This document shows positions 3,615-63,677 of a stretch of 64,000 bases of DNA, piece after piece. The translations under genes and the position numbers were made by a program. This DNA comes from Chiloscyllium plagiosum. Taxonomy: Eukaryota. Each line of letters begins with the position of its first letter. The first letter of the stretch is position 1. The DNA lies in contig NC_057715.1 of NCBI RefSeq assembly GCF_004010195.1, positions 21,344,034 through 21,408,033 of the forward strand, written 5' to 3'. The notes below the pieces were generated by a model. It made no database searches and was not told the origin of the DNA. It saw nothing but the letters and a program-made list of their open reading frames with translations.

Positions 3615-3827
3615 GTAGACAAGCAGGAGGTTAGAAGAACACAGCAAGTCAGGCGGCATCAGCAGATGGAGAAGTCAATGTTTTGGGTATAAGCCTCCTT
3701 CAGAACAGGTATTATACCTGAAATGTTGAGATCTCCACCTCCTGATGCTGCCTGACTTGCTGTATTCTTCCAGCCTTCTGCTTGTCTACCTTGGATTCCA
3801 GCATCTGCAGTTTTTTTTTGTCTCTAA
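3615..3827 (+). mobile_element. Palindromic Penelope-derived mini-element (old copy)
   Basis: Inverted arms gtagacaagcagg...cttgtctac (3615-3789), then a ~38 nt tail. Degenerate 16-bp TSD at 3598-3613 / 3828-3843 (12/16 identical). Confidence 0.75.
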
Positions 3828-3889
3828 CCACTTTTCTTTCTGGTGGCTTATTTAATGGCAGGTGATCCATCATTTTAATTTTTTTTACA

Positions 3890-4015
3890 GTCATAGTCAT
3901 AGAGATGTACAGCACGAAAATAGACCCTTCGGTCCAACCAGTCCATGCCGACCAGATATCCCAACCCAATCTAGTCCCACTTGCCAGCACCCAGCCCATA
4001 TCCCACCAAACCCTT
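3890..4015 (-). mobile_element. HER1/CR1 LINE 3' end
   Basis: Reverse complement of the CR1 3' UTR seen at 41200-41315 (gggatatctggtcggcatggac...gaagggtct...ctctatgact). Confidence 0.8.
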
Positions 4016-4029
4016 TTTCGTTACTCTCT

Positions 4030-4310
4030 AGCAGTTGATAATACTGAATAGCTTGGCAGGCTGTTTCAGAGGAATGGTGAGAGTCAACTACATTTCTGTA
4101 GATCTGGAGGCTCTGTCAGCCAGATCAGGTAAGGATCTTCACCAGAGAATATTAGTGGACCAGAATTTTTTTTGACAATCAGCAATGCTTCCATAGTCAT
4201 CATTAGACTTTAAATTTCAGATTTTTAATTGATTTCAAATTCCACCATGAACATTACCTAGCTGTCTAGATTACTAATCCAGCGACAAACCCATTAAGTC
4301 ATTATGTCCC
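4030..4310 (-). mobile_element. tRNA-derived SINE (same family as 60222-60540)
   Basis: Reverse-complement similarity to 60222-60540. Confidence 0.6.
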
Positions 4311-4389
4311 TGCTTTGTTGCAATCTTGAAAAGAACACTTCAAGTTAGAAGATAATTTCTCTAAAATTCCTAAAAAAGTGATTTTATTG

Positions 4390-4965
4390 AAACATGAAAT
4401 AATCAGATTGATCTTGATGAGGTGGACACTAGAAAGGCGTTATTAATGCTGTCATTTGAGTTAAGTGACGACATTTAAGAAGAAGATGTCAAGTGTTTAG
4501 GACAGAGATGAGGAGATTCAGTCAGTGGGTCACTATTATGGTAACTTCTTGTCCCAAGAAAACAATGCGAGCAGGTTCATTGAATTTATTTAAGTCAGTT
4601 AGATTTTTGACATACAGGGAAGTCAAGGGCTATAGGCAGCAGATAGGAAAGTAGAGTTAAGGCTACAGCCAGATCAGCCATGATATTGGAGACAGTAAGG
4701 ACTGCAGATGCTGGAAGTCAGAGTTGATAAAATGTGGAGCTGGAAAGGCAAAACAGGTCAGTCAGCATTGGAGGAGCAGAAAAGTTGATGTTTCGGGTTG
4801 GAATACTACATCAATCGTGATGAAGGTTCCTGACGTGGAACATTGACTTTCCTGCTCCTCTCATGCTGCCTGATCTGTTGTGCCTTTCCAGCTCCAGATT
4901 TTATCAGCCATGATTTTATTAAATAATGGAGCAGGCTTGAAGGACCATGGCCTACGCCCTATGTT
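4390..4965 (+). mobile_element. Degenerate CR1 LINE 3' end, interrupted by palindromic mini-element
   Basis: CR1 3' UTR motif gatcagccatgat...atgga gcaggcttgaag...atggccta split by the insertion at 4688-4902. Confidence 0.65.
4688..4902 (-). mobile_element. Palindromic Penelope-derived mini-element
   Basis: 37-nt tail (4688-4724), then inverted arms tgataaaatgtggagctgg...ccagctccagattttatca. TSD atcagccatgat(a/t)tt at 4673-4687 / 4903-4917. Confidence 0.8.
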
Positions 4966-5878
4966 CCATTGTCCACATTGCAAGATAGAAAGCAGGTGCT
5001 TTACTTTAGTTCCTTTCATTGTGCAACTAATTGGTAAGAAATATTATGAGTCATTGATTATTACACAGTGCATACAAGAATGCATTCCAAAGCACGATGC
5101 CAGATTAACTGATGCACCTGTATTCTATTTGTTGGGCTCTGTTTAAAGATGCTATCTCTCCCCAAAGGGGACTCTTTAGAAATCAATTATGAAAAAGTAT
5201 CATTAATATGAACATCTGTCTTGATTTTGCTCAGTCTACTCCTATCTTTTAATTTTTTTTGAATAAATAGTGACTGCTAACATCATCACAATTGGAGGTA
5301 TTAGATTAAATTCAGGCAGACACAGGATATCTTGGCATCAATTTTTTAAATAGACTCAGACACTGTGGTGCTGAAATGAGCTGGAATGTTATAATAATGC
5401 AGCTATTAAATGCCAAGTATTTGTTAAGATTAACTCCAAATTAGAACTCATTAAACACAAAAATAAAAGAACACCAACAATTCCTGCTTGGCTTGTTCAT
5501 TTTTGTCTTTGCAGATTTTATTCATTTGCTTCTGTATTTCAGTAGCTTAGTTTTATTTTTTTTTCTAACTTTAAAAAATTTTGCAACTTGCTTTGAGTTT
5601 TATGGATCACATGATCGACTAGAAATATTAACCTCCAACATCGGTCTAATGTCACCCACCATCCCTCTGTTCCTGGACCTGCATTGGCTTCTGGTTAAGC
5701 AACTCCTCAAGTTAAAAATTCTCTCCCATGTCTCCACATTCCCCCATGGCTTCATCCCTTTCTGTCACTTACCAAATTTGAGAAGATTTGTAGCTCAGGT
5801 TGAGGTTCTGGATATAGGTTTGCTTGCTGAGCTGGAAGGTTGATTTCCAGGTGTTTTGTTACCCGACATCTTCAGTGG

Positions 5879-6099
5879 CTAGATTAGAGTGGTGCTGGAA
5901 AAGCACAGCAGGTCAGGCAGCATCCAAGAATCAGGAAATTCGACGTTTCGGGCAAAAGCCCTTCATCAGGAATATTCGGGCTTTTGCCCAAAACATCGAT
6001 TTTCCTGCTCCTCGGATGCTGCCTGACCTGCTGTGCTTTTCCAGCACCACTCTAATCTAGACTCTGGTTTCCAAAATCTGCAGTCCTTGTTTTTACCTA
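5879..6099 (+). mobile_element. Palindromic Penelope-derived mini-element
   Basis: 83-bp inverted arms 5879-5961 / 5978-6060, 39-nt tail, perfect 13-bp TSD acatcttcagtgg at 5866-5878 / 6100-6112. Confidence 0.9.
5938..5973 (-). ncRNA. Minimal type I hammerhead ribozyme motif (intact core)
   Basis: Minus strand AUUC-CUGAUGA-A-GGGC-UUUU-GCCC-GAAAC-GUC-GAAU: stem I AUUC/GAAU, conserved CUGAUGA and GAAA, stem II GGGC/GCCC, palindromic ACGU in place of stem III, GUC cleavage triplet. Confidence 0.8.
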
Positions 6100-6484
6100 A
6101 CATCTTCAGTGGGCCTCATGGCAAAGCATTGTTGATAATTCCTGATTTCTATTTCTGTCACTGTAATCTCCTTCCAGTCTCACAACCCCCGAGATATCTG
6201 CACTTTTCTAATTCTGGTGCTTTGAGCTTCCACAGTTTGAATTATGTAAAATTGGTACTTATGCCTGTGGCTGTCTTGGCTTTTCCTAAACCTCTCCATC
6301 ACCATTTTCCCAATAAGATGATCATAAGCCTTCTGCTTACAATAGCTCAATGACAAATTTTGCTTGATGACACTCCTGGGGAAAACCTTGGGATGTTTTG
6401 CTATGTTATAATAAATATAAATTGTTGTGGAAAATGATTTCGCTTCCTAGTTTGCTGAAAGACAGAAACCTTTAGTTGTATTAA

Positions 6485-6620
6485 CGTAAAATGCTGCAGA
6501 TGCTGGAAGTCTGAAATCGAAACAGAAAATGCAGGAGAAATTCAGCAGGTCTGGCAGCATCTGTGGAGAAAGAAACTGAGTTGACATTTTATGTCTGATA
6601 AAACTCTTTTTCTTAGGAAG
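6485..6620 (-). mobile_element. Penelope-like terminus, single decayed arm
   Basis: ctgcagatgctggaagtctgaa...cagcaggtctggcagcatctgtggaga, same family as 31885-32012. Confidence 0.7.
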
Positions 6621-6658
6621 ACTCCAAATGTTAACCATAAGTTGTAATACATTGCCCT

Positions 6659-7182
6659 TGATAAAATAATTCCACAGAAGCTAGTATCCTATCGCCAAGT
6701 CACTTTTTATTTACATGTGCATATTACAGGACACTGGTTCAGCTTCATCAGAGCCAGCTCTCAGAGTTATTAGAACCCCTGACACTCCTGTCTATTTTTT
6801 TCTCTTTTTTCATGTTTTTTTTCTTTTTTTCTCATGTTCTATTTTTTCTTTATTTCATGTTCTACTTTTCCTTTTATCTTGTGTTCTATTTTCTTCTTCT
6901 CCACATTATTGCCTAACAGCGGTAGTGCTTCTTTTTCCCCTACATCCATGTCGTGTGTGTGCAGGTGTCGGACACAGTAAAAAACAACAAGTGTGTACAT
7001 CTTTATTTATATTCTACTACCAGGAAGAAAGGAAACACTCGAGTGGCCAGTGACCGGCAGTGGCCCTTACCCCTATGTATCTCTGTCAGCCAGGGCTCCC
7101 TGGTTGGACCAGGTTAACAGTCCCAATCAGGGAACTCAAATTCTGTGAGGTTTACCTGGCTGACATCATTACAATCACTGCA
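6659..7182 (-). mobile_element. Solo LTR (Gypsy-like), interrupted at TATA position
   Basis: Minus strand starts TG(cagtgattgtaatg) and ends ttatCA. It contains CCAAT-type boxes, then AATAAA about 50 nt from the end, and no internal genes. Confidence 0.6.
6793..7075 (-). mobile_element. 5'-truncated retroposon 3' end with A-rich tail (L1/Tx1-like), nested in LTR
   Basis: ~110-nt T-rich tract with repeated catgttct units (A-rich tail on minus strand), followed by ~170 nt of unique body. Confidence 0.55.
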
Positions 7183-9117
7183 CTCGACACAGCTTCAGAG
7201 CTGGTTTAAGTGTCTAGCCTAATCGATTATGGTTGTAGTGAACATCATAAACATGAAGTCTTGTTATAGCACTCTTTCAGATATCATCTGGAAGCTCAAC
7301 TTTTATTTTAAAAGTTATTGAGTTCCATCGGGATTCTAACAATTGCTGAGAAAATGATCAAGGCCTACCAGCTCTTCTAAGAATTCTTTTTAAATTGCTA
7401 ACTTTTCTTTTCAGAGATCTAATGTGGTGCAAATATAAAGTTTGCCGAGCTTAGTGTTAAACGGAGTCTTATTAAATTGATTTTATTGCTGGATGGGTGT
7501 CCAGCCACATGATAATTTTGCTTCATCTGTAGTGTCACAAGTTTAGTAAAAACCTTTACTAGGCAGCACACCCTAGGTTCTGTGCAGAAAAAAAAAGTCT
7601 ATTGAACTCTAAGCAGTGAGTTTTAATTACCATAAAGAAAAAAATATGTACCAGTTGAGCAACAGAATCAGCTCAATAAGACACATCTGAACATTGATTA
7701 AGTTGATCTTACAATTACATCATGTAAAGGACTTCTTTACATGATTTGTCTTGATGTGTCGGGCAGCATATGCTACTTGTTATTGTAATTCCCATCGAGA
7801 TAAATGATATTTCTCAAGAAATTTTAAATTCTTGTTAATAGCCAAAAGAATAACACAACAAGATTTCACATTTTCAGATTTATGCCTCAACAGACTAAAA
7901 GCTGCTTTTGTGCGCAATTTATAATTTAAATTACAAAACAGGACTTTTCACACAACAAAAATAAACCATGATTGGGAATGTGTTGTCCTTTGAGCAGAAT
8001 TCAATTCTCCCAGAATTCATCCAAAAATATTCTTAACAAGCAAACAGTTACCTCTGATCTATATCTTTCCCAGCTTGACAACTTGTAACATCACAAATGC
8101 CTTTCATGGTCTAAGTTCTTCTGGAGACTTTGTCCTCTCACTACAGCTTGGCAAATATTCTAGCCTCTATTTAATTCCACAAAATGTGCTCTTTCCAGTA
8201 TTAACACAAACTTCCATCTGCAGTCTGGAGCAGTGAACTGTCGATATTTTCAATCTTTTGCTGCATTCTTTTTTTCTCTCTCAGACCTGGCACCAAGCTG
8301 TTTCACTCGAATATTTTATGAGCACACAAAGCATAATATCACAACGGCGTCTTCTGTACCCTTTCCAGCTTAAAACCAACACCAGGGCAACACTAACCAG
8401 ATGGACATTGTGTTTAGGTAGAGACGGTGATTAGCTGTACTTGAGGGCCTAGCTTTCTTCCAATTTGGAATGATATGAACAGTTTTAAACACAACTACTT
8501 ACAACCTGAAATTTTCAACACATGCCTGAAATTTTGAAAATTCACAATCTACTCACTGTTTACTTACAGGCTGTGGCCATTATCTTAAAATGCTTCATAC
8601 CTTTATCTAGAAGATCAATCTACAGCTCCCCCCTATCCCACTTGACTCTAAGTAAACTACCCAGGCCCTACCTGTGCTGTCAGATACGCTCCAGCACTGG
8701 TCATTTTCATTTTGTCTTAAAGGCGTGGTCCTAATAATCTAATAATCCTCATGACTGTAATGTTGTAATGCTAGAACCGGTGAAATGTTTGATTCTCAGG
8801 ACAGGTGCAGTCGAGGCAGGATCTGACTGTTGTTCAGTCAGGCTATTGAGCTTATAATAGCTTGTTATGTGAAAGCATTCTTACTGCCAATTGGTTGACT
8901 GTGCAGAAAAAAATGGCAATATGGTTCTTGAGTCAAGCTAATTACATGCCACTGTTGGGAAGGCTGCTGTCTTGGGCAATGGTGTTAGTCAATATCCATG
9001 GCATTCTTGACACTTCTTGTGTGCCAGCACATGAATGAAGTGAGTCTAGAATTAGAATATTGGATGTGGTGTCTATTGAGTTGAGCATGTTTGTTGATTA
9101 CCTATTTGTCTCATTCA

Positions 9118-10134
9118 ATTCTGAAAGCTTTTGATAAAGTCCCAGAGGTTAGTGAGTAAAATTAGGGCGCATGGTATTGGGGGCAAACTACTAGATTGGA
9201 TTGAAAATTGGTTGGCTAATAGGAAACAAAGGGTAGTGATAAACGGCTCAATTTCGGAATGGCAGGCAGTGACCAGTGGGGTACCACAGGGATCCGTGCT
9301 GGGACCACAGCTTTTTACAATATATGTTAATGATATAGAAGATGGTATCAGCAATAACATTAGCAAATTTGCTGATGATACAAAGCTGGGTGGCAGAGTG
9401 AAATGTGATGAGGATGTTAGGAGATTACAGGGTCAGTCAATGAAGGCAAGCATGCAGGTACAGCAGGTAGTGAAGAAGGCTAATAGCATGCTGGCCTTCA
9501 TAACAAGAGGAATTGAGTATAGAAGCAAAGAGGTGCTTCTGCAACTGTATAGGGCCCTGGTGAGACCACACCTGGAGTACTGTGTGCAGTTCTGGTCTCC
9601 AAATTTGAGAAAAGACATTCTGGCTATTGAGGGAGCGCAGTGTAGATTCACGAGGTCAATTCCTGGAATGGCAGGATTACCTTACACTGAAAGACTGAAG
9701 CGACTGGGCTTGTATACCCTTGAGTTTCGAAGATTGAGAGGGGATCTGATTGAGACATATAAGATTATGAAAGGATTGGACACTCTGGCAGTAGGAAACA
9801 TATTTCCACTGATGGGTGAGTGCCGAACCAGAGGACACAGCTTAAAAATACGGGGTAGACCATTTAGGCCAGAGCTCAGGAGAAACGTCTTCACCCAGAG
9901 GGTGGTGGCTGTGTGGAATGCTCTGCCCCAGAGGGCAGTTCAGGCCCACTCTCTGGATTCATTTAAGAAAGAGTTGGATAGAGCTCTCAAAGATAATGGA
10001 ATCAAGGGTTATGGAGATAAGGCAGGAACAGGATACTGATTAGGAATGATCAGCCATGATTATATTGAATGGCGGTGCAGGCTCGAAGGGCTGAATGGCC
10101 TACTCCTGCACCTATTGTCTATTGTCTATTGTCT
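9118..10134 (+). mobile_element. Young 5'-truncated CR1 LINE (RT C-half + 3' UTR)
   Basis: 302-aa open frame with SGVPQGSVLGPQLF, SKFADDTKLGG, LVRPHLEYCVQFWSP, RRLRGDLIETYKI and TRGHSLK. Tail (tattgtc)x3. Confidence 0.95.
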
Positions 10135-10318
10135 AATTATAACAAAACCTTGAAGTCTGTCAGCTCCTCAAAGGAATTCTTTTATGAACTGCTTTTTCCA
10201 CAGCAAAATTGCATTAATGGATGTTACTATTTTTGCAACAAAGCCTCAAACAACTTTTAAGTCGCGTATTTTATTTCTAACACCAAGGAATCTGTGTTCC
10301 AGTCAAATCCTGGCCATT

Positions 10319-10676
10319 ATAGAATCATAGAGTTACACAGCACAGAAACAGACCTTTCAGTCCAACTCTTCCATGCTGACCAAATATCCCAATCTGACCT
10401 AGTCCCATTTGCCAGCATGTGGCAAGGGATGACCTTATAGAGGTTTATAAAATCGTAAGGGGCATGGATAGGGTGAATAGCCAAGGTTCATTTCTGAGGA
10501 GTGGGACTCCAAAACTAGAGGGCATAGGTTTAAGGACCTGAGGGGTAACTTTTTCATGCAGAGGATGGTGCATGTATGGAATGAGCTACCAGAGGAAGTG
10601 GTGAAAGCTGGTACAACATTTAAAAGGCACCTGGATGGGTATATGAATAGGAAGGATTTAGAGGGATGTGGGCCAA
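10319..10676 (-). mobile_element. HER1/CR1 3' end with inverted 5' part
   Basis: 10319-10423 is the 3' terminus on the minus strand. 10424-10676 is the adjacent upstream part (DLIEVYKI...RGHRFK) on the plus strand. Confidence 0.8.
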
Positions 10677-15577: not shown

Positions 15578-15954
15578 TCATAGCTGATGTTCTTTAGGCT
15601 TCTCCATGGATGCTGGTGTATGTTTGTATGATTTCAGACTAGCCAAAGGAATGTCCGTCATTTGACTCCCACTGGTATAATGTCCCTCATTTCCACTAAT
15701 TAGTTTCCTGTCATTAAAATGATTTCTGTTCCCATCCTCCTTCCAGGCCCTTGAGAGTGCATGTCCATTCACTATCTTATCTTTCTTAATCCATTCTTTC
15801 TGAGATCCAAAGGTAGCGAGAGGGGACTTCAGCTGTTGATAGGAACCAAGCCCTGGAGGCATCCAACAGTTGTCTGAGTGGCCAAGTACCAAGCATTCTT
15901 GGGTGCACATCTCTGTTGCTTCAGCTAGACCTCTTGGGCCAAGTGGAACATCAC
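15578..15954 (-). CDS. PCDH9: Terminal coding exon of protocadherin-9 (delta-1 protocadherin cytoplasmic tail with CM2 motif)
   Basis: Minus-strand translation (G)[83 protein letters not shown]...[13 protein letters not shown]...PKEHQL* matches the recalled vertebrate PCDH9 C-terminus (CM2 motif [16 protein letters not shown], end KEHQL). It is preceded by the acceptor tatcctttattttcAG and ends at TGA 15578-15580. Confidence 0.95.
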
Positions 15955-15975
15955 CTGAAAATAAAGGATACAGAA
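15955..15975 (-). promoter_or_regulatory. PCDH9: Splice acceptor (polypyrimidine tract + AG) of PCDH9 terminal exon, phase 1
   Basis: Minus strand reads ttctgtatcctttattttcAG|GTGATGTTCCA. The AG is at 15955-15956 and the frame continues into the CM2 ORF. Confidence 0.9.
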
Positions 15976-16220
15976 AAAAAAATTATATCAGTGACACTGT
16001 ATGTAGATTTTTTAAATCATATAATGCTGCTTAAAAGTGCATTTGAAACCAGCTCAGAGTGGTGGGGTGAAGGGCTCCTCCCTCTCCTAATTATAAAGGT
16101 TTTGATTAAAATAAATGCGATTAATCTCAAATGAACCACTCAGTGTGGGTTGACATACACTTGATGAAAGTGCTATATTCCGCGTGGTTCGTATGAAATT
16201 CAGGAAAGTTTAAGGAAGGA

Positions 16221-16320
16221 ACTGAAGAAGGGTCACTGAACCTGAACCATTAACTCTGATTTCTCTCCATAGTTGCTGCCAGACCCACTGAGCCTTTCCA
16301 GCAATTTGATTTTTTTTTCA
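16221..16320 (+). mobile_element. Penelope-like terminus with decayed hammerhead
   Basis: CTGAAGA-agggtcactgaacct-gaacc-attaactctgatttctctcc. Confidence 0.7.
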
Positions 16321-19950: not shown

Positions 19951-20212
19951 AATTGTTCTCTCTGTGTGACATGAGACAGACAACATCTACTTAACTATAG
20001 GGGTTGGGTAACAGCAAATGCATGCAAGTGATCTCACCATGTAAACATAAACATTAGTCTTCGCTAGTTGCTCCTGCCTTGGTCAAAATATATGCTGGGT
20101 TTCTGCCCAAATGTAAAATACTCGTGTGTGTGTGTGGTAGGTGTGTGAATTATGATGCATCTCTGGGTGACTTATGGAGTTTGCAGAACAATTGGCAGTC
20201 CTGATGAATATG

Positions 20213-20426
20213 GCTGAAAATGTGTTGCTGGAAAAGCGCAGCAGGTCAGGCAGCATCCAGGGAACAGGAGAATCGACGTTTCGGGCATAAGCCCTTCTTC
20301 CTGAAGAAGGGCTTATGCCCGAAACATCGATTCTCCTGTTCCCTAGATGCTGCCTGACCTGCTGCGCTTTTCCAGCAACACATTTTCAGCTCTGATCTCC
20401 AGCATCTGCAGACCTCACTTTCTCCC
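20213..20426 (+). mobile_element. Palindromic Penelope-derived mini-element (young)
   Basis: 88-bp arms 20213-20300 / 20303-20390 with 2 mismatches and a 2-nt spacer, 36-nt tail, perfect 17-bp TSD cagtcctgatgaatatg at 20196-20212 / 20427-20443. Confidence 0.92.
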
Positions 20427-21531
20427 CAGTCCTGATGAATATGTTTAGTTTAATTGTCATGGGGGCGGATCAATTCAGGTTATCATCAAACAAACCACTT
20501 AAGTATTTCTTTGGTAGTGCCTTAAGCTTAAAAGAAATGGTATCCTTTGGGGAAAATTAAAGTAGGGAGGGTTTGGCTTTTTATTGTGAGCCTAGAAAAT
20601 AATACCGGTGATATCAGTAAATGATGCTTCAAACACTTAAGCGCCATACTTTTGCTCTTTGAATGAAGGAATTTTAAAGCTATAACATTCAACTCATCAT
20701 GCTTGTGCCAGCTCTTTGAAAGATCTGTCCATTTTGTCTCATTCCCCTGCTGTTTCCCCACTGTCCTTCAATTCCTTTTTACATTTTCAAATACTCCCAC
20801 TTCAAATAAATATATTTACCATGCTCCCCATTGAGTTAAAATAGCAGAGGAATTTCAATGGAACATAATCAATCATGGGTACTCAGGTATTGACAGTAAT
20901 CATTTCAAGGCTTATAGACCCGATTGACACTGATGTGTTCACTATGTCCAACAGTTCAGTTGGCACAGTTTCAACAGCTGCTTTGAAAGCAGTGTTTATA
21001 CAGTGTGACTCCAGCTGTAGCACAGACAATAAAATTGCCCACTATTCTTGAAATCTGACTCTGAAGAGAGCCTCCTGATTTCACGCTTGACAAGGGAATA
21101 AGAGTCGCTTCAGGGTAGCAGGACTGTTGGTATATACACATGCCCCTTCAGATTTTCCTTAAGAGGAAGAAATCGAGAGGATCAAGGTTTTGTTGGATGA
21201 AGGAACCAGCTGTGCTCCAGGGAACTTGCCTGAAAACCACCTGAGCACATCAATGGATCAGAAATGATTCACTTACACAAAACTTGCATCTTCCACAGAG
21301 GGCTAGAAGGACAAGAGATAATTGGGATAGAGCTATTCTTGCTAATCACATGTTTAAAAGGAAGTTATTTTAAAAATATGAATTTTTTTAAAAAGGCACA
21401 ATTTTCATCATTGTGTACTTGGTGAAGATAACAGTATAACCACATGACTCTCCTCTAAAATAAATTAGAAAACTTACTTAAGATCCCTGTATTATTGATA
21501 GACTGATGGATAAGATTCTGTCTTTTTTTTA

Positions 21532-30289: not shown

Positions 30290-31100
30290 TATTTTGACTG
30301 CATCACAGAACACCTACATTCTGTCTGCAAAAAGAGACCCTGAGTTTCCTGTTGCTTGCCACTTCAACACACCATCTTATTCTCTGGCCAACATCTCTAT
30401 CTCAGGCTTGCTGGAGTGCTCCAGTAAAGCTCAGCACAAGCTGGAAGAACAGCACCTCATTTTCCACTTTGGGACACTACAGCCTTCTGGACTCAACATT
30501 GAGTTCAACAACTTTAGGGCTTGAGCTCTCCTGTGTCCTTCCCCAGCTCCCACACACCAAGCCTTATCACATCATCTGCTATTGTCCAACAGGTGTATTT
30601 GGAAGTGCAGGCTTTCGGAATGTTGCTCCTTCATCAGGTAGCTAGTGGAGTAGGACACAGAAATCATAGCAAAAGTTCATAGTGTCATATACTGAAGCGA
30701 TATATTGAACAAACTTTGTCCACTCCCCTGTCCAACACTGGCACCTTCAAATCATCTGTTAGTGCACACAACCCATTGTTAGCCACGGACAGTCTCCATT
30801 AACAACTATTCACGCTCTCAGCTTGATTATTATCCACTCCTTTTTCTATCCAACTGTTCTTCTCTCTCTTTGGGCTCTATCTCTGCCTATCCTTTACTTC
30901 TTACCCCCTGACCCCACTCTACCTTCTGCATAAAACCCGACATTTTCCTCACTACTTTAGTTCTGAGAAAGTGTCACTGGACCTGAAACCTTAACTCTGA
31001 TTTCTCTCCAAAGATGCTGGCAGACCTGCTGAGCTTTTCCATCAATTTCTGGGTTTTTTTTGTTCCTGATTTCCAGCATCTGCAGTTCTTTCGGTTTTTA
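30290..31100 (+). mobile_element. Penelope-like element 3' part (GIY-YIG C-terminus, 3' UTR, terminus)
   Basis: DPEFPVACHFNTPS...LEEQHLIFHFGTLQPSGLNIEFNNFR*, followed by decayed hammerhead ctgagaaagtgtcactggacctgaaacc and ccagcatctgcag tail. Confidence 0.85.
30585..30750. mobile_element. Short Penelope-like insertion (CTGATGA-AGGAGC family) nested in another PLE
   Basis: Minus-strand CCTGATGA-aggagcaacattcc-GAAAGC at ~30610-30640. 14-bp TSD atcatctg(c/t)ta(t/g)tg at 30571-30584 / 30751-30764. Confidence 0.7.
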
Positions 31101-31633: not shown

Positions 31634-31884
31634 CAACTTTTAAATCAAGCATGGATAAATGTGTGGAGGACTCACCGAATCGAACAGCTGGAATGCATGT
31701 CGGAACCAAGGACTATGATAGCTACATAACAAAGAAATTATTTATAGGAAAAGTCATCGATTTGCTGTTAATCGCTGACCTTTTCAAAGTTCAGAAACCA
31801 TCATTTGACTGCAAGCCACACAATCAAATCTTTACGATCAAGTTTGCAGGAATAGCTCAAACCAGAGCTGGTCATAAAAGGATA

Positions 31885-32012
31885 AAAGCAAACTACTGCG
31901 GATGCTGGAATCTGAAACCAAAAGAGAAAATGCTGGAAAATCTCAGCAGGTCTGGTAGCATCTGCAGGGAGAGAAAAGAGCTGACGTTTCGAGTCTAACT
32001 GACCCTTTGTCA
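31885..32012 (-). mobile_element. Penelope-like terminus, single arm
   Basis: ctgcggatgctggaatctgaaacc...cagcaggtctggtagcatctgc...gacgtttcgagtctaactgaccc. Confidence 0.75.
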
Positions 32013-35000
32013 AAGCTAAAAAAAAGGGTCATGAAAGGGCTCCTCTCTCTCTCTCTGTCTTTGCGTCACAAACTTACTGTGTCTGGCCAGGACAGAGCAG
32101 CTGAAAGGTCCAAATTGTGACCTCACACAACTCGTACCACTCAGACACACTAGACGGTTGTAGTCTGTTGTATGTTACAGACAATAACACACCAGCTCTC
32201 GGAAATTAGCAAAACACTGAAATTATTCGGTCAGAATGTGCGTAAAGTCTATTATTATCAGTTATTTAAATCTCCAAATTCTGGAATTGACTAAATACCC
32301 GACTAAAAATATATATTTGAGATGGCGATGTAAAAATCCCACGATTCGTGGCTAATAATTGCTGCCTTTTATTTTGGGTTTTTTTGACCGCAGTGATGCT
32401 ACTCTGAGCATATTACCTCCAGAGACAACTACACCGAGGAACTCATTATTGTAACAGTGTGAGAATTAATTTATGGAGTGAACAGTTCAGCAAACGTCAT
32501 TTCTTTAAATGCACCGTGATTCAAGTCGGCTGGAAGACTGAATATTTATAAGTAATCCCATTTTGGAAATGCTTAACCCCGGCTGTGGAAATCATGTAGT
32601 TCAATGGTATGAAGTAAGTAGCTCATTGTGTTTAATAAAAAAGAAACTGACGTGAATGTTATCCCGCTGGGGAAGGGGGTGAAATAAAATTTGTTAGTTT
32701 AAATATGGATTTTGAGTTCTGTCTATTTAACGTTAATTTGCTGTACAGCAGCTACAGGGAAGCTGTAGGCGAGTGTTACGTGGGTTTGACTGCCACAGGG
32801 AAAGTGAAAGGGCAGCAGGTCCCAGTTTTCTACTAACGATTGCATAATTGACTGAATTAGCCAAAGATCTCTTCTTTCAAAATGCCATTGCCTACTGCTG
32901 GTCGCTGACGCCACTGTAGTATGTTTCTCTGCACATGGAAACACCAGCCTGAAAAGTAAGCCAGGTTTCTTAACCTCACCAAGGCCGTTTCCATCGGAGA
33001 TGAGTTTTACTAATACTTTAATCTTACAGAAACGGTTTTCGGTCTCTGCTGCAATAGGAGGAGATGATTCTTGCAAGCTTATCTTGGCTGTTTTTTAGAA
33101 GTAGCATTTAAAAAAAACTGTTTGGCTAAAATAAGTTGTGCTGATATTATCTTAAAGGGCATCGATACTCTGCAGCACATTAGCAAGGTATTTCTTTAAG
33201 ATTTGCACGCTTGCGGTCTTTAAAGAAGCCACTCTGTTTAAGGCAGAAGCGGCTATTTATGGCGAACTGCCTTCATTCTTTGTAGGTCTACTCCCACCTT
33301 GTCACGTTCTGGAATGGTTTTCATGATTCTTAGCATCCGATTCTCCACCCTAACTAATAAGTAACAAATAATAAGTACCTTTCACCTTGCTTATCGGAAC
33401 AAAACAAATGCAGACTGATTTTGCAAACGCGAAATTCAGACTGATTTTGCAAATATGCATGTTCCGAAACTGAACTGCTCACATTTGAATCAGGAACCTT
33501 GTCAACAGAATCCTCCTCAAGTGATCTAAATCTGTCCAGGAAATGATGTAGACAAATTGCCTTTCATATCATATAATTTATGCTCTAGTCATGAAACAAT
33601 ACATCTCCCTCCTACCAGTAAGATTTGGCACCCATCACATCAGCCAAAACTACATACCAGACTCTGGGAAAGGAAGAAAAACCAGGATGTAATCTCTTCC
33701 TAGTCTTACACATCCTAAACCCATGCCACCCCCTCCTCCCCAACCTATTAAACTCGAATAATCCATCAATACAGACACTATCCAGCATTTTAATTATTTT
33801 AATGACTTCTATCAGATTAACACTTAGCCTACACTACTCTAAAGTGAATAGACCAAGATTCTTAAGCTGGCCTGAGTTGGTTCTTTAATCCAGTAATTAT
33901 TCTTAGAGCTCCCTTCTGGATTCTTTCCAAGATCACTATATAACCTATCTTGAGAAGGGTGGAAAACAAGATATATCACTCTGGATGTGGCATGATCATC
34001 AAATTATTTGATTCAAAGTAAAGTTATTGATTTACACCAGGGGATTTTATTAAATCTGCTGAAAGAAGAGACATGCTTTCAAACTTATTCACCTTGCATT
34101 CACCAAAATAAATGCAAGAATGCCAAATTTCAAATAGAGCAACAATTTATATTTGAATTAGCGGGAGCAATAGTTTCCCGGTGCACTCTCCAAGGCAACA
34201 CCTTGACCAGACCAAACAGAGAGGATTTGCTAACCAATCATCACCAGTCTCTCATGCATATATATATTTGCTCACTTTGAAACCTGGCAAAAGACTTTAG
34301 CAATATCTTTTTTTTTTGACAACACTCGGTCTGCACTCCTAAGCAAAACAATTCACTATGTTAATCTCTCTAAATACAGTTTCACTGCAGCGGCAAAGAG
34401 TCTTCAGTGATCTGAACATAACAGAAATTGTTCCCTCTGAACCTCTTTCAGTATGTACAATGAGCCACTTAGAGTTGGGGAGGCGAGGAGAGAAAATATT
34501 CAAGGGAATCAATGAGGTACTTATTGAGAACCTCCTTGTGTTAAACTACAAGGGGGGTAAGGCAACAGAATTACAGTTAGAAAACGACTAACAAAATTTA
34601 ATATAAGAATAAATTACTTTAGATTTATCAGTTGTTATATTGTGAAAGAGACTGCCACCTAGTGCAGCAAAAGTAGACAGAAATATTTGGGAAAGCAGAA
34701 AACTTTCAGATAGTGAAAAATTTGGTACTTAAATGGTGTGACAGCAAAGTAAATATTCTGTAGTTCTTTATAATGGATTGAGAGGGGTCTCAAATAGATA
34801 TTCTGCATAATATGTGCCAGTTCCATACGCTTACTTTTGATTTCACTGTCATGATACTCACCAACTGTGAGGCAACTGGACAGACAAAACAAGCCTTCTT
34901 TAATATCCAGCAATTACATGACACTATCCATTTTAGAAGTGTTGAGTGGAGTCCCAAAAGGGAATCAGATGGTAGATATGTGCCCTCATATTCCCTGTGA

Positions 35001-38888: not shown

Positions 38889-39026
38889 TGCTGTATTCCT
38901 GATGAAGGGCTTTTGCCCAAAATGTCGATTTTACTGCTCCTCGGATGCTGCCTGACCTGCTGTTCTTTTCCAGCACCACTCTAATCTAGACTCTGGTTTC
39001 AACATCTGCAGTCATTGTTTTTACCT
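38889..39026 (+). mobile_element. Single-arm Penelope-derived mini-element beginning at hammerhead
   Basis: attc-CTGATGA-agggcttttgccc-aaaatgtc... tail ...tttttacc. Perfect 15-bp TSD atgggtctacatgat at 38874-38888 / 39027-39041. Confidence 0.9.
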
Positions 39027-42650: not shown

Positions 42651-43150
42651 NNNNNNNNNNNNNNNNNNNNNNNNNNNNNNNNNNNNNNNNNNNNNNNNNN
42701 NNNNNNNNNNNNNNNNNNNNNNNNNNNNNNNNNNNNNNNNNNNNNNNNNNNNNNNNNNNNNNNNNNNNNNNNNNNNNNNNNNNNNNNNNNNNNNNNNNNN
42801 NNNNNNNNNNNNNNNNNNNNNNNNNNNNNNNNNNNNNNNNNNNNNNNNNNNNNNNNNNNNNNNNNNNNNNNNNNNNNNNNNNNNNNNNNNNNNNNNNNNN
42901 NNNNNNNNNNNNNNNNNNNNNNNNNNNNNNNNNNNNNNNNNNNNNNNNNNNNNNNNNNNNNNNNNNNNNNNNNNNNNNNNNNNNNNNNNNNNNNNNNNNN
43001 NNNNNNNNNNNNNNNNNNNNNNNNNNNNNNNNNNNNNNNNNNNNNNNNNNNNNNNNNNNNNNNNNNNNNNNNNNNNNNNNNNNNNNNNNNNNNNNNNNNN
43101 NNNNNNNNNNNNNNNNNNNNNNNNNNNNNNNNNNNNNNNNNNNNNNNNNN
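42651..43150. other. Assembly gap (500 N)
   Basis: Run of N. Confidence 1.
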
Positions 43151-53421: not shown

Positions 53422-53531
53422 TCTGACAGTGAAGGGGACAAATGATCTGCTGACCTGCTTCCCAAAGAACAGGGAGCAAGAGCAGGCACTTCAGCCCTTC
53501 GAGCTTGTATATTATATTCATTGTTGATTTC

Positions 53532-55110
53532 ACAAACAAAAACAGATGTTGCTGGAAAAGCTCAGCAGGTCTGACAGCATCTGTGAAGAGAAATCAGAGT
53601 TAACGTTTTGGGTCTGGTGACCCTTCCTCAGAACTAATGTTAGCTAGGAAAATGTCAGTTTATGTGCAGAAGATAGTATGGGGAGAGAAGCTAAGGAGTA
53701 AATGACAAGTGGGGACAGAGCCCAAAGAGAGAGAAGAACAGCTGGATACACAAAGGAGTGAGTAACAATTTGACTGGGAGGGTCAATAGCTGTTAATGGA
53801 GACTGTTAGTGACTAACAATAGGTAGTGTGCAATGTTGGACTATGTGATTATAAGGTCTGGTGTAAGGGGTTAGGGGCTGGGACATGGGGGAGGTAAAGA
53901 CCCCCTCCCACTGCACCAATGACATGCAGGTCCTGGGCCTCTCCCATCGCCAAACTCTCCGACGCCTGGTGGGAGAAAGCCTCATTCTTCCGATTTGGGA
54001 CACTTCAACGGCATGGATCATTGTGGATTTCACCAGTTTCCCCATTTCCCCTCACCCCACCTATCCCAGTCACAATATCCCAACTCAGCACCGCCCTCTT
54101 GAACCGCTCTGCCTGTCCATCTTCCTTTCCACCTATCTGCTCCACCCTCCTCACCGACCTATCACCTTCACCCCCACCTTTATCTACCTATTGCATTCCC
54201 AGCTGCCTTCCCCAGCCCCACCCCCCTCCCATTTATCTCTCAGCCCCCTTGGTCCACAAGCCTCATTCCTGATGAAGTACTCATGGCCAAAATATCGACT
54301 TTCCTGTTCCCGAATGCTGCTTGACCGGCTGTGCTTTTCCAGCACCACACTCTTTGATTCTGATCTCCAGCATATGCAGTCCACACTTTCTCCTAAAATT
54401 ATTGAACTTGATACTGAATCCGGAGGGCTGCAGGTTCCCCAACTGGAAAATAAGGTGTTGTTCTTGTGTTGGCCAGGGAACATGGTGATGTGTTAAAACA
54501 GTAGGCAACTGGTAGCTCTGGGTCTTTTTTTTTTATGGTAGAACGTAGATGTCCTGCAGTGGTCACCCAATCTATGCTTTGTTTCCCCAGTGTAGAGGAG
54601 ACCACACTGTGAGCAATGAATATAGCAGACTAAATTGTGAAAAGTGCAGGTAAAATGCTGCTTTGTCTCTGTCACATATGTTTTGATGAGGCCAACTTTA
54701 ACAAGGGAGCCTTTGAAATGTCCACCTTCTTCCTCAACCATTGTCAACAAGGCCCTAAACCAGGTCCGACCCATTTACTGCACTTCCACCCTCCCCCCAC
54801 GCTCCCCTCAATATGGTGTCCTTACCTACCATCCCATCAACATCCACATTCAGAAGATCGTCAGTCGCCATTTTCACCACCACCAGCAGGATGCCACCAC
54901 GAGACACATATTCCCCTCCCTTGTCCGCCTTCTGCAGGGACTGTTCCCTCCAGGACAACCTGGTCCACTCTTCCTTCACTCCCAACACCAACCCCCACCC
55001 CCAAAGCCCCAGGGAACCTTCCCCTCAAACCACTGAACGTGTAACACCTACCCATTTGCCTCCTGCCTCCTCAGTATCCAAGGGCCCAAACATACCTTCC
55101 AGGTGAAGCA
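53532..55110. mobile_element. Nest of Penelope-like elements: minus-strand copy (53532-54680) with inverted upstream part (54680-55110) and nested plus-strand copy (~53893-54393)
   Basis: GIY-YIG-type peptide HFTCTFHNLVCYIHCSQCGLLYTGETKHRLGDH and DPELPVAYCFNT (minus). VLTYHPINIHIQKIVSRHFHHHQQDATTRHIFPS (plus). Hammerhead-like termini at ~53590-53634 (minus) and ~54265-54300 (plus). Confidence 0.85.
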
Positions 55111-57762: not shown

Positions 57763-58083
57763 GGGCGGCACGGTGGTTAGCACTGTTGCCTCACAGCGCC
57801 AGAGACCGGGGTTCAATTCCCGCCTCAGGCGACTGACTGTGTGGAGTTTGCACATTCTACCCATGTCTGCGTGGGTTTCCTCTGGGTGCTCCGGTTTCCT
57901 CCCACAGTCCAAAAACAAATTTGTGCAGGTTAAGTGAATTGGCCATGCTAAATTGCCCGTAATGTTAGGTGAAGGGGTAAAATGTAGGGGAATGGGTCTG
58001 GCTGGGTTGCGCTTCGGCAGATCAGTGTGGACTTGTTGGGCTGAAGGGCCTGTTTCCATACTGTAAGTAATCTAATCTAATCT
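57763..58083 (+). mobile_element. HE1 (V-domain) SINE
   Basis: gggcggcacggtggttagcac...gggttcaattcc, V-domain, tail gtaatctaatctaatct. Confidence 0.92.
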
Positions 58084-58239
58084 GCAGTGATCTTTTGAGA
58101 GAAGTGGCCTGATGGGTCAGGGTCCTCTAACAAATGCTGGTGTCCGCAAGTATTAAACAAAGCTTCTGCAATGTCAACTTTGATAGACTGGCCATTTGAA
58201 AATCATCCCCCTTCCTCGGCCCTGACCTCTCACTCTCAG

Positions 58240-58590
58240 TTTGTAAATGTTTCAGGAAAGGCCATGAAAACACTTCACACACATTGTGAAACTCTCCTTG
58301 AAGCTTGGCAGCTTTGGCTTTAATGAATGGGAGGAGCTTGCTAACAGTTGCTCAGAGTGGCAACAACTTGTCCGTGCTTTATGTCTCAATGCTTTAATGA
58401 TGAGACAGAACAACATCAGAGAAGTAAAGGAAGCAAACTCTTCTCTTCTGATTGCATTACTCAAACGGTAAGCCTGCTCCAGTTCCTTAAATTCCTGCAG
58501 GTCAAGAATCCATCCATTCAACACATGGCAGACAGAGTCAAAGCCCTGGGTAGACCACATCCTCAAACTGGGAAGCAGCCACCACCAATG
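58240..58590 (+). mobile_element. RTE-type LINE 3' fragment
   Basis: RP*KHFTHIVKLSLKLGSFGFNEWEELANSCSEWQQLVR resembles the RTE C-terminal GRPxKRxxDxxK...WExLAxDRxxWR motif. Confidence 0.55.
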
Positions 58591-60221
58591 AACCATTTGC
58601 TTCAAATGCATACTTACTACTTTACTACAGTCCCTGTGGTAGTGAGCTGTATAAAGAATACAGCTGTATAAAGAATAAAGTGAGTGGATAAAGGAGTTGC
58701 TTATGAATTTCCTTTCAAATTTATTGGTGACATTTTTTTTTTGTTTACCCCACAGTGGAGATTTCTTCTCCATATTCACCACGTCAAATACCAAACTTTT
58801 GCATGCGTTAAGAAAAGCTTGCCTCATTTCAATGGTTATTCTAGTAGTTAAGAGCAGACTATAGTGGCTAGGCTGAACCTGTGGCTGACACCGATGGGAA
58901 AAGCGATCACATTGCCAAGCAGAGCTTGCTACTTCTCCATTGAATAACAAACACATCTCTCTTCTGGGTTGCCGCAGGACTATCATTGTTCAACCTATTC
59001 ATACGAGCTTCACATCAACTCCACTCCATGGGTTTAGGCCACATATCTTTCTGAAAGCAATCCCAAAACAAAAGGTTGAAATATCAGAAGTTTGCAAATT
59101 GAAAAAAAATAACTGCTTCTATGGTGGTCTGGTGTGACACTGGCCTCTAACCACGAGAAGTCACATCATAACGCAGCTTCCCAATGTTGATCCACTTACT
59201 CCATAAAAAGAATCGCAGCATAATGCATGACAGATCATTTGGCCCAACATGCCTCTCCCGGCATTTGAAAAGAGCCAATAGAAACAATTAGTTCCATTCC
59301 AGCGGTCCTTGTCCATAGCCTTAACATTTACTCGTCTTTAGGAATGTATTGAACTCCCTTTTGAAAGTTATTATTGAATTTGTTTCCACAACTCTTCAGG
59401 CAATAAATCCCATATCATAACAACTTGTTGCATAAGAAAAAAAACCTCTAATGACCCCTCGTCCCCTCTGGCCAATTATCCTACATCTGTGTTTGATTAT
59501 ATACCCTACAGCTACTTATAGATGAAAGATTACACTGCACTTTGACCAAACAACAGCTCAGTTCGTAGACATGCCCACTAGCTGATTACAGAAAATCGGT
59601 CTGCTTCTGCTTTTAGTACGGCAGAAACATCAACCATCAACTTCTTCAGTAACTGTCAGCATTTCAGCTTGTCAGAAAGAAGAAAGAATACTTTTTTCCA
59701 CTGGAGGACATAACCTTTGAATGGGTTTACTATTTTGAAGGTGCTTATAAATGGACATTGTTGTTATTGCAGGTTGGAGGTCAAGACTAAAAGCCATCAG
59801 AACAAATCAATCAGTGGTTAGCTCTTCAGTTGTCCTTTGTGACTGAATTTGAGGCAGAAAAGGAAATTTATGACTGCTGAGAGTAAAATGGTTTTTTTAA
59901 AATTCCCTCTTGGGATACAAGTGTCACCTGCAAGGCCAGCATTTATTGTCTATTGCTATTTTCCCTGGAGAAGGTGTTGCTGAGACACCTACAATTCAGT
60001 GGCTTGCTAGACTTTCTCAGCAGGCAATTAATAGTCAACCATTTTGGTCAGGACTGGGAATTAAAGTAGATTATATTATTTGCTAATCTGCCTGTCAAGG
60101 AGAGAAGCAGGAACCAATCTATCTTTCTCATAGGTTTATTCACAATACCCAGGGCCGTTCAAATGCAGATTATGTTTCCTTTCCACAGACCAGCCCTTCC
60201 TAGGTTCTTATCTGTCTGCAA

Positions 60222-60880
60222 GGGAGGCAATGGCTGAGGTACTATCACTGCACTATTAATCCAGAGACATAGGTAATGTTGTGGGAACCTGGGCTCAAAA
60301 CCTGCTATGGCAGATAGTGGAATTTAAATTCAGTAACAAATCTGGAATCAAGAATCCAACGATATCAATTGTTTGGAAAAAAAAAACCATCTGACACACA
60401 AGTGCCTTTTAGGGAAGGAAACTGCCATCCTTACCTGGTCGGGCCTATATGTGAGTCCAGACCCACAATAACATGGTTGACTCTTAACTGTCCTCTGGGA
60501 TGTGCATTACATGCTGGCCCAGCCAGTGATGCCCTCATACTTTTTTAGATTAGATTAGATTACTTACAGTGTGGAAACAGGCCCTTTGGCCCAACAAGTC
60601 CACGCCGCCCTGCCGAAGCGCCACCCATCCAAACCCCTACATTTACCCCTTACCTAACACTACGGGCAATTTTAGCATGGCCAATTCACCTGACCTGCAC
60701 ATCTTTGGAATGTGGGAGGAAACCGGAGCACCCGGAGGAAACCCACGCAGACACGGGAAGGACGTGCAAACTCCACACAGTTAGTCACCTGAGGCGGGAA
60801 TTGAACCCGGGTCTCTGGCGCTGTGAGGCAGCAGTGCTAACCACTGTGCCACCGTGCCGCCCATACTGTGAATGAATATA
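60222..60880 (+). mobile_element. tRNA-derived SINE with CR1-group tail, interrupted by HE1
   Basis: tRNA-like head gggaggcaatggc...gggctcaaaacc. The tail tgctggcccagccagtgatgccctcatac|tgtgaatgaat matches the LINE tail at 55805-55845. Confidence 0.7.
60542..60862 (-). mobile_element. HE1 (V-domain) SINE, young, nested
   Basis: Full-length copy with (agatt)n tail. TSD atact at 60537-60541 / 60863-60867. Confidence 0.92.
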
Positions 60881-61329
60881 TTAAAAAAGATATTTCCCCA
60901 ATTAATATCAATTGCTCTCAATCCCAACTATAGCATGCATATATACACGCTCAATTAACAAAGATTAGACTTGGTCATCTGAAGGCTGAATGAACCTTTG
61001 GATTTTTTTTACTGATATCCCATACATTTATTAAGCCTAGCATTTATGAATTTACTTGAACTTAAATTCCCCAACTGCCAACCTGTTGGGATTTGAGCTC
61101 ATGTCCTGGTTAGTTAGTATCAAACCAGGCCTCTTTAACATTTGCATCCCATCACTAATTTTTCTGCAACATTTATACCTAAGTAGCTGAAAATATACAG
61201 CATTTAAAAACTTCTGATGTCGCTCAATGCAAAGATTTAGTTTTTATTTAAATTAATTACACATGCTTGGTTGAGGAAAGAATGATTCTATTCTAATTGT
61301 AGAAGGGTTCATTTGCATATTTCTATTGC

Positions 61330-61775
61330 AATGGCTCAATTGCTGGCACTCTCATCTCTAAGTCAGAATATGAGTTCAAGTACCACTCCAAGACTTGAAC
61401 ACAAAAGTGTAGATTGACACTTAAGTGCATCCCTGAGGGAGTGATGCAGTGCTAGAGGCATTGTCTTTTGCATAAGATATTAAACCAAAGTCCTGTCAGT
61501 TCTTTCAGAGAGACATAAAAGAAATCACAGCACTACTCTGAAAAAAAGAGGTGAGTTCTCCCTGTTCCCCTGACAAAAGTGCCTCCAGAAGTAACATCAT
61601 AAAAAGCAGACAATCTGATTCTTATCACATTGGTATTTGCAGGTGTTTGAATTGAGTAAATCGGTTGCCTTGTTTTCTACATTATAAAGTTGATAATGCT
61701 TCAAGTATATTTCATTGACTGCAGAGTGCCTTATGGTCTGCTGAGGTCACGAAAGGTGCTACATGAATGCTTGTC
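61330..61775 (+). mobile_element. Deu-domain SINE, near full length
   Basis: tRNA-like head (tggctcaattg...gagttcaagtacc), Deu core, tail ctgaggtcacgaaaggtgctacatgaatgc. Confidence 0.75.
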
Positions 61776-63454
61776 TAATTTATGTGTGGAATTATAGTGA
61801 TTTGAAGATGATATAAGGAGTGAAATGAGATGAGCCTTTTAAAAAAAAACTGATGGCCATGTGAAATATTTTACCACAATGTTCCAGTTTGATCCGTGAT
61901 GCAAAAGATTAATCTGTTTCTTTGTAAATGGCAAGACCTCATTGTTTTCTATTTTGTGCAAAGCTGTTTTTCAGTTTGCTTCAGCATGCATGACATGGCC
62001 TGTTTGCTTAGTGAGCACAAACTATAGAAAGAGGGCACATGTCATTTATATTAGAGCAGTTAACATTCAATTTCAGAGGATGAGGTTAATGATCAAAATG
62101 TATTGCTAACAGATTGAAAACTAGAGACTGACAATTTTGCTCCATCCCAGTTCACTTGAGGGTTAATAGATTTAGTTGGGTACAGTTCTCAGGATTTCAT
62201 CATAAGATTACATGGCTTTAACTGTTCCAAGCAGTTAGCAGCCTTCATACCATACCACCCCACCACATCCCCCTCCCTGCTTATCTCCACTATGTTTAAA
62301 CTAATAAGTAGACATGTTCAAACACACTTTGTTCTTAATGATCATCTGAGTTATTTTCTGTCTGGTTTGCAAACAATGTGTTCCAGGACAATAACTCCTG
62401 GAGATTTCAAGATTAAGTCAATTTTGGAATTAATTTCACGCTCGCCTCTTGACAGCTGGTACACCAAGGCCATGATTGACACATTTTTTAGGGTGGTAGT
62501 AAGAGCCTCAATCTTCCCTAATCTGGGAGTAGAACAGGAGGACAGGAGGTAGCTAATGAAAGCCAGATTGCATACATTTCTTCACTGTCTTTGAGCATTG
62601 TGTGTGAAGTGACTAGAATTGTTGGAGATGGAACAAAACTGTTGCAGGGTGGGTGGTCACCTATCCAAAATGGCAACTTTAGTGAGGACGGATACTCTTT
62701 TTTAAATCCCACAAATATAGAGACTGTCCTTAATGTGTGGTGCTGTACATTAAAATAAAAAGGTTGCCTGCATTTCCAACCTTGTTGTCAATTATCTTAA
62801 ATCGTCGTCTGCTGCTTACTGACCCTCCTTCCATTGCAAATAGCATTAACGTTATCAAAACATTTCATGACTTGTAACAAATCTATTCGATCTGCTCCAA
62901 GCTTCTCCATTCTAAGGAAACTTTCTCACTCCATAATCTGAAAACTTTTGGTCTCAATTGGGATGTGGTGTAGAAAGATGCCAATGGTGTGGGTTCAATT
63001 CCTGTGGAGGCTGTTTATGGAGGGCTGCCTCTTTGCTTTGCACCACACCCCAGCCTCACTCCTGAAATATTTAAGGAGGGAATTCCACAGATTCAGAATG
63101 TTGCATGAGACCAATCAAGTTCACCTTCCCTCTTGGAGTTTTGGACTTCAAACTAGGAAAAATGATCTATTCCAGATACTTGTACAATTTAATTTTATAG
63201 TCTAATTGCAATGAATAAAGAAAATAAATTCATGTTTTACAGCCACCCGAAGGTATTTAGAAATCTGCCTTTTTGATCTTTCCACCCACAAGTTTTTCAG
63301 CTGTTCACCTCAACACAGTCTCCTGAACACTAGTCAGGGAACAGGGAATTATAAGAAGGATGCACCTACAATCAATGAGAAAAATCATTGTTCAGCTACA
63401 TACATCTGTTCAGAAGCAATTACTGGAACCCAACCAAATGACATTATTATTTTG

Positions 63455-63677
63455 GTAAAAACAATGACTGCAGATGCTGGAAACCAGATTCTGGATTAGT
63501 GATGCTGGAAGAGCACAGTAGTTCAGGCAGCATCCGGGGAGCAGTAAAATCGACGTTTCGGGCAAAAGCCCTTCATTGCTTTATTCCTAATGAAGGGCTT
63601 TTGCCCGAAACATCAATTTTACTGCTCCTCGGATGCTGCCTGAACTGCTGTGCTCTTCCAGCACCACTAATCCAGAA
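63455..63677 (-). mobile_element. Palindromic Penelope-derived mini-element
   Basis: 34-nt tail (63455-63488), 88-bp arms 63489-63576 / 63590-63677, perfect 15-bp TSD gacattattattttg at 63440-63454 / 63678-63692. Confidence 0.92.

Follow-up and report, generated by a model that had tools for sequence, protein, structure and literature searches.

Five inserts of about 215 bases in Chiloscyllium plagiosum DNA are target-duplicating stubs of Penelope-like elements

The studied stretch of Chiloscyllium plagiosum DNA (64,000 nucleotides; assembly GCF_004010195.1, contig NC_057715.1, positions 21,344,034 to 21,408,033 of the forward strand; hereafter the window, numbered from its first letter) carries fragments of Penelope-like elements (PLEs) and five short palindromic inserts, e1 to e5. 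The inserts measured 213 (3615), 215 (4688), 221 (5879), 214 (20213) and 223 bp (63455). An earlier note had described five insertions of about 213-223 bp with inverted arms and a one-sided tail of 34-39 nt, and all five were present where it had placed them. The inverted-arm scan returned arms of 88 nt with 98% identity at 20213, 89 nt (94%) at 63489, 89 nt (91%) at 5873, 78 nt (83%) at 3615 and 99 nt (78%, with an extension running into the flank) at 4715. These arm pairs held the top five scores among 16 inverted pairs lying within 1.5 kb of each other. Both arms of each insert represented the same PLE segment, arranged head-to-head as a single unit, and both always belonged to one subfamily; arm-versus-arm identity does not discriminate between one RNA and two RNAs as the template. 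The tail (34-39 nt, about 40 at 4688) was attached to one arm only, could be aligned across all five inserts and in every case contained (CCAGC/CCAAA)ATCTGCAG.

The repeats flanking e2-e5 scored 12-17, against a best score of 10 in about 490 random 215-bp placements. The e1 repeat (12/16) scored 6, which lies inside the null, and was missed by repeat scoring; of the 13-17 bp duplications described previously, those matching at 17/17, 15/15, 13/13 and 14/15 positions exceeded all random placements, and the one at 3615 is degenerate. Public contigs were aligned on window positions 19960-20760 for the analysis of the empty site, the joints and the loose ends of e4, the empty-site comparison covering this insert alone of the five. 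In organism B, one contig in each of two runs, derived from two studies, joined 20195 straight to 20427, leaving out the 214-bp element and exactly one 17-mer. Because the empty site of organism B, a related species, holds a single 17-mer, the 17-bp repeat at e4 is a true target-site duplication. In an organism A run from another study, the flank was joined to the arm at e4. The five inserts of about 215 bases were confirmed as real target-duplicating stubs of PLEs (Table 1).

Table 1. Palindromic stubs, their duplications and other PLE-derived features of the window
Feature	Position	Strand	Details
Stub e1 (old)	3615-3827	+	arms 3615-~3706 (antisense, tail-less) and ~3707-3789 (sense), tail 3790-3827
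e1 duplication	3598-3613 / 3828-3843		degenerate, 12/16
Stub e2 (old)	4688-4902	-	tail 4688-~4726; arms ending at ~4812 (tail-bearing) and 4902 (tail-less)
e2 duplication	4673-4687 / 4903-4917		14/15
Stub e3	5879-6099	+	tail-less arm 5879-~5976, sense arm 5978-6060 from stem II, tail 6061-6099
e3 duplication	5866-5878 / 6100-6112		13/13
Minimal type I hammerhead motif of e3, intact	5938-5973	-	motif search; traits as in PMC4209133
Stub e4 (youngest, arms 97-98%)	20213-20426	+	arms 20213-20300 and 20298/20301-20390, tail 20391-20426
e4 duplication	20196-20212 / 20427-20443		17/17; one copy, without insert, in organism B
Stub e5	63455-63677	-	tail 63455-63488; arms ending at ~63577 (tail-bearing) and spanning 63577-63677 (tail-less)
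e5 duplication	63440-63454 / 63678-63692		15/15
Single-arm stub, type A	38889-39026	+	arm and tail, no inversion, 95% to e3 tail arm; starts about 10 nt upstream of hammerhead core; exact 15-bp duplication 38874 / 39027
Single-arm stub, type B-like	31882-32026	-	starts at hammerhead; duplication 31870 / 32027 (11/12)
Type B arm and tail	6481-6632	-	inverted partner about 17-20 nt; duplication 6467 / 6633 (12/14)
Type B tail-less single arm	16219-16320	+	starts at core; duplication looked for, none found
Tail-less type A arm	1-162	+	93% to e5 tail-less arm; continues upstream into pyrimidine-rich PLE 3' region, past window edge
Long type B PLE 3' fragment	30290-31100	+	last part of the endonuclease coding sequence, followed by 3' region, hammerhead, arm and tail
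Long type A PLE 3' fragment	53893-54393	+	endonuclease match weak (E 0.03); nested in type B copy
Type B PLE copy	53530-55110	-	GIY-YIG motif region 54553-54663; 5' segment 54670-55110 in opposite orientation

Two types of PLE end were distinguished in the window, type A (e1-e5, 1-162, 38889 and 54266) and type B (30960, 53530, 6481, 16219 and 31882). A Pfam search with the window's own coding fragments gave no match, and their identity came via two other proteins, P0142 and P0122. P0142, a protein of 813 aa with an RVT_1 domain and, at its C-terminal end, a GIY-YIG domain, both above the Pfam cut-off, matched window positions 30348-30506 (E 2e-10) and 54553-54663 (E 4e-7). The arms are assigned to PLE ends because the same end type follows coding fragments that match this reverse transcriptase and GIY-YIG protein. 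For the type A end nearest to e1-e5 the protein match was weak (P0122, E 0.03), and the link of type A to PLEs is drawn from this match together with the shared hammerhead, arm and tail alignment. The arm type had been said to follow GIY-YIG coding sequence at both 30290-31100 and 53893-54393; the former proved to be type B, and the latter carries a related end, 60-73% identical to the arms of e1-e5.

A profile built from PLE ends found 13 insertions in the window, with its own seeds included and four weak matches (45691, 47463, 48639 and 53068) excluded. Nine of the 13 ends stop within about 15 nt of the hammerhead core, at the 5' edge of the hammerhead. They comprise e1-e5, three stubs with a single arm and a copy whose inversion is very short. 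The four non-palindromic ones stop at the hammerhead without a full inverted partner, and three of them have a duplication of their own. The remaining four of the 13 ends continue into the 3' region or coding sequence. The fragment at 53893-54393 was inserted at the end of the reading frame of the type B copy at 53530-55110. In that copy, the inverted 5' part ends at codons just before the start of the direct part, an arrangement of LINE-1-style twin priming in a PLE; a duplication was looked for there and none was found. At 6481-6632, the short inverted partner stops near the ribozyme cleavage triplet.

Both end types bear a minimal type I hammerhead motif. The motif lies at the centre of the stubs, where it was intact at 5969-5942 (minus strand, e3) and near-intact at 20301 and 63587 by motif search; those at 3703 (e1) and 4810 (e2) had decayed and were recognisable solely through the alignment. 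The e3 motif consists of a 4-bp stem I, the CUGAUGA core, one unpaired A, a 4-bp stem II and GAAAC-GUC. Minimal PLE hammerheads have a short stem I, an unpaired base before stem II and a palindromic helix III (PMC4209133). The same source describes many single motifs in Schistosoma, as well as opposite-strand hammerhead pairs 100-700 bp apart. The Rfam search gave no match to a hammerhead family, its best sub-threshold matches being microRNA families, that is, hairpins. Folded as a single strand, the hammerhead yielded a non-ribozyme hairpin (z -2.3), which is uninformative because the motif is expected to act as a dimer. Stem II was kept in all arms and the core in most, from which it follows that the template was uncleaved at the ribozyme site. 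No reads of RNA run X22 were placed, so that this run carries no weight on expression or self-cleaved RNA.

The junctions were numbered with the core C as +1, the values for e1 and e2 being approximate. The tail-less arm reached about -5 (e1), -4 (e2), -5 to -7 (e3), +3 (e4) and -10 (e5, 10 nt upstream of the core), and the tail-bearing arm started at about +7, +2, +9, -3 and +4, respectively. The tail-less arm outreached its partner in four of the five stubs. All five junctions differed, with overlaps of 0-3 nt (3 nt between the e4 arms). Copies as similar as e3, e5, 38889 and 1-162 (84-95% alike) yet had four different 5' structures. In the public contigs, 98-179 contigs per run departed from e4 at each of three central positions. 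The loose-end consensus kept PLE letters (as at 54255-54268) to about -8 to -11 and then decayed, reaching about -14 in run X12, with an agreement of 0.34-0.46. The tail end was sharp, 384-455 contigs per run exiting at 20425 into unrelated flank. Contig depth was not taken as copy number. The loose ends at e4 favour a peak of copy ends at the edge of the hammerhead.

A generic head-to-head hammerhead pattern was then evaluated in metagenome contigs, where it returned 113 loci in 8 of 64 parts scanned (about 1000 estimated overall) and none in viral contigs. The pattern fixes the centre, not the outer ends, the tail or the duplication. Removal of duplicates (three for the size table, five for the duplication and arm-reach tables) left 110 loci after the former step; 40 loci with arms below 40 nt, which represent chance matches or decayed loci or were cut by contig ends, were dropped, leaving 70 with arms of at least 40 nt beyond the motif and 62 with enough flank (at least 100 nt). 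These loci are presumably animal DNA, putatively from unrelated PLE families, and are unlike the window arms in sequence beyond the hammerhead. A duplication was found at 32 of the 62, offset in 29 of the 32 by a one-sided tail of 23-43 nt, compared with 0/39 in shifted controls. Their total size was 174-251 bp and their duplications 9-21 bp (31 loci). The distance from core to end was 68-110 nt without and 113-134 nt with the tail, the corresponding window values being 89-91 and 125-128 nt. Three families with five members each had five junctions each; in one of them (L020/029/038/043/110), near-identical arms met at five junctions at five loci. A search with the exact arm sequences gave no matches in metagenomes or viral contigs, and the 38 matches in prokaryote genomes, similar over no more than about 44 nt, were treated as chance. 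The whole 731-bp locus L002 apparently had a tail on both arms (91/92 nt).

We consider it probable that each stub arose de novo by two primings at its own insertion, with no palindromic master from which it was copied. The presumed GIY-YIG endonuclease would make a staggered cut with an offset of 13-17 nt, the length of the observed duplications. Each freed target end, on opposite strands, would then prime reverse transcription at one internal start site. Downstream of the hammerhead core, the two sites would correspond to the positions observed at about 90 nt and about 125 nt from it, with the 35 nt between them forming the tail. For an anole PLE in vitro, both target strands are cut and extended, synthesis starts at two internal sites delimiting the tail, and the main template is uncleaved RNA (PMC11167929); the same two starts and extension of both strands may be expected for the window families. 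Both complementary DNAs (cDNAs) would usually stop within about 15 nt of the 5' edge of the uncleaved hammerhead, where the ends are observed, either at the RNA 5' end or by stalling at the fold. The facing cDNA ends would finally be joined via microhomology of 0-3 nt with either arm trimmed, a presumed joining that would leave junctions of the kind observed. If one priming were kept, a single-arm stub would result, and copying past the hammerhead would give a long copy with coding sequence. The template may be one RNA copied twice, or two RNAs. Two primings account for the arm-arm-tail layout, the head-to-head polarity, the long duplication and a combined length close to 215 bp; the size would be constant because each start site lies at a fixed distance from the hammerhead (about 90 nt for one and 125 nt for the other, minus trimming). 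One of the two readings offered in the earlier note, in which reverse transcription of a PLE primes a second time some 35 nt away and yields a stereotyped product, is supported and agrees with the two-start data from the anole (PMC11167929). The note's placement of that priming near the RNA 3' end is likely wrong, the only PLE examined in vitro having its starts at internal RNA positions downstream of the hammerhead.

An alternative, also acting de novo at each insertion, is that one cDNA stops at the hammerhead, folds back and self-primes the inverted arm. Self-priming is the published view for rotifer PLEs (PMC3846280); fold-back would also explain why both arms of a stub always share one subfamily, and the junction microhomologies of e3 and e4 lie in self-complementary hammerhead stems. 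Fold-back of a tail-bearing cDNA predicts, however, that the loop lies on the tail-bearing arm, which should always reach furthest, and a tail-less cDNA could not template a tail. The opposite asymmetry seen in four of the five window stubs was clear in 13 of 31 metagenome loci, in which the tail-less arm had the core and the tail-bearing arm lacked it (three with 100% identical arms), whereas 5 of the 31 clearly had the direction compatible with fold-back. One junction with a 2-nt overlap, shared by L046, L049, L065, L082 and L105 across stem II variants, would demand a loop of 1 nt. Since the tail-less arm often reaches further, simple fold-back fits worse, and we regard it as unlikely.

Stubs could instead be palindromic elements that replicate non-autonomously, PLE enzymes copying them as a whole, as in the earlier suggestion of a replicating MITE-like family (miniature inverted-repeat transposable elements). 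The narrow size range speaks for whole copying, PLE ends are able to mobilise sequence in trans (PMC3846280), and three of 119 within-family metagenome pairs shared a junction, one of them at the same locus and two at distinct loci. Against it, the junctions of even the close relatives e3 and e5 differ, and no joint dominated among the best 15 of 414 distinct joints on e4 in the public contigs, each having at most 4 contigs per run. There is also no evident signal that would halt copying exactly at the tail-less end. The recurrent junction of L046/L049/L065/L082/L105 would suit whole copying, but its tail lies to the right in L065 and L105 and to the left in L082; this junction, which occurs in both tail polarities and has an overlap of 2 nt, may recur de novo. 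For e1-e5 whole copying is not supported, and we regard it as improbable.

Survivorship, in which longer inverted insertions collapse or are purged and short palindromes remain, is a still weaker candidate that we hold to be very unlikely. Long palindromes are unstable, and a tail-less arm of more than 160 nt is present at 1-162, but the inversion-free single-arm stubs (38889, 31882 and 16219) stop at the same place, and e4, the youngest stub and absent from organism B, already has the modal size. In favour of DNA-transposon MITEs that merely resemble PLE ends are the short length, the inverted arms and the very high copy number (55,481-67,887 contigs aligned to the e4 region), but this reading is close to refuted by the unpaired tail at one terminus outside the repeat, the long and variable duplications (13-17 bp), the existence of single-arm and coding-linked copies and the layout shared by several unrelated families.

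Several points weigh against construction by two primings. All PLE copies in the window are fragments, none being full-length. The D. virilis transcript begins well upstream of the hammerhead (PMC2377424, PMC4209133), so that RNAs ending at -10 are not a general feature. The 414-joint count is blind to gap-free crossings of the e4 centre, and a family with the e4 junction could exist; the loose-end counts under-represent long copies, contigs breaking in high-copy sequence. Later deletions at the palindrome centre could mimic trimming or blur the comparison of arm lengths. The metagenome pattern favours a complete left arm, no size mode versus long copies being derivable from it, and the upstream reach at the centre of those loci was not sharply capped, 1-31 nt being unexplained. 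Two junction types recurred at five loci each, loci with cut arms counted. Besides the one discussed above, L024, L042, L092, L096 and L102 share one junction with different flanks and the same altered hammerhead core on the same arm; this junction looks inherited, and the locus set is a candidate for a palindromic stub replicated whole.

A wider conjecture is offered tentatively, and we find it doubtful. Across animals, the PLE hammerhead would be less a pair of scissors than a stop-and-pair signal: two RNAs joined via palindromic helix III on a dimeric enzyme would each prime one target strand and both stop at the ribozyme. The products would be pan-animal 'double strong-stop' palindromes of about 200 bp, a few of which would turn into self-propagating non-autonomous units; the L024/042/092/096/102 set suggests itself as an example of such a unit.

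Outside the PLE-derived features, the window holds an open frame with a CWMP motif at 15578-15982 (minus strand), presumably a protocadherin-like cytoplasmic exon; it gave no Pfam or Atlas match. The open frames at 9125-10039 and 180-569 are presumably reverse transcriptase remnants of long interspersed nuclear elements (LINEs). Positions 42651-43150 are an assembly gap of 500 N.

How PLEs come to have inverted repeats is treated as an open question in the available text of PMC8557442 and PMC11167929, and the stubs represent fossils of that step that are both minimal and very numerous. Counting junctions allows two primings to be told from fold-back, and the stubs predict specific products for the in vitro system that already exists. 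Stubs of this kind are prone to mis-annotation as microRNA hairpins or MITEs and, having clean empty sites, can serve as presence/absence markers between related species. No named family of such stubs was found in the literature, with Repbase reports, subscription papers and supplements (notably Fig. S2 of PMC11167929) lying outside the search and possibly describing them; within the same limits, neither a size class devoid of coding sequence and broken at the hammerhead across unrelated families nor the arm-length argument against fold-back was found in print.

In LINE-1 twin priming, the second target strand primes on the RNA, and the resulting 5' inversion is joined via microhomology. The LINE-1 segments are consecutive and non-overlapping on the RNA, whereas the arms of e1-e5 copy the same segment; the LINE-1 pattern was seen in the window at 53530-55110 only. 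The stubs have mostly the known PLE layout and are not a new kind of mobile element. The published unit of endonuclease-bearing (EN+) PLEs consists of an inverted pseudo-long terminal repeat (pLTR), a direct pLTR, a tail of 30-40 bp and a target duplication (PMC3846280, PMC8557442). It shares with the stubs the head-to-head inverted end, the one-sided tail, the duplication, the hammerhead in the repeat and the link to reverse transcriptase and GIY-YIG. It differs in having an open reading frame between the repeats, the window stubs lacking one, measuring near 215 bp and being broken at the hammerhead; their duplications are 13-17 bp versus 8-10 bp in rotifer PLEs. PAc (Poseidon of Anolis carolinensis; PMC11167929), the anole PLE, is alike in its two tail-bounding internal starts, about 110-150 nt past the hammerhead, in the cutting and extension of both strands and in its uncleaved template; the available text describes no inverted products or stop at the hammerhead, both of which we infer from the genomic stubs. 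The window hammerheads share the traits given above for minimal PLE hammerheads, except that the 4-bp stem II of type A is unlike those in PMC4209133, an analysis whose available text does not extend to tail, duplication or junction. Non-LTR retrozymes (PMC7229834; bioRxiv 10.64898/2026.07.22.740005) are likewise small, non-coding and PLE-related, with a type I hammerhead and long duplications, but they form head-to-tail tandems with circular RNAs, whereas e1-e5 are all head-to-head single units.

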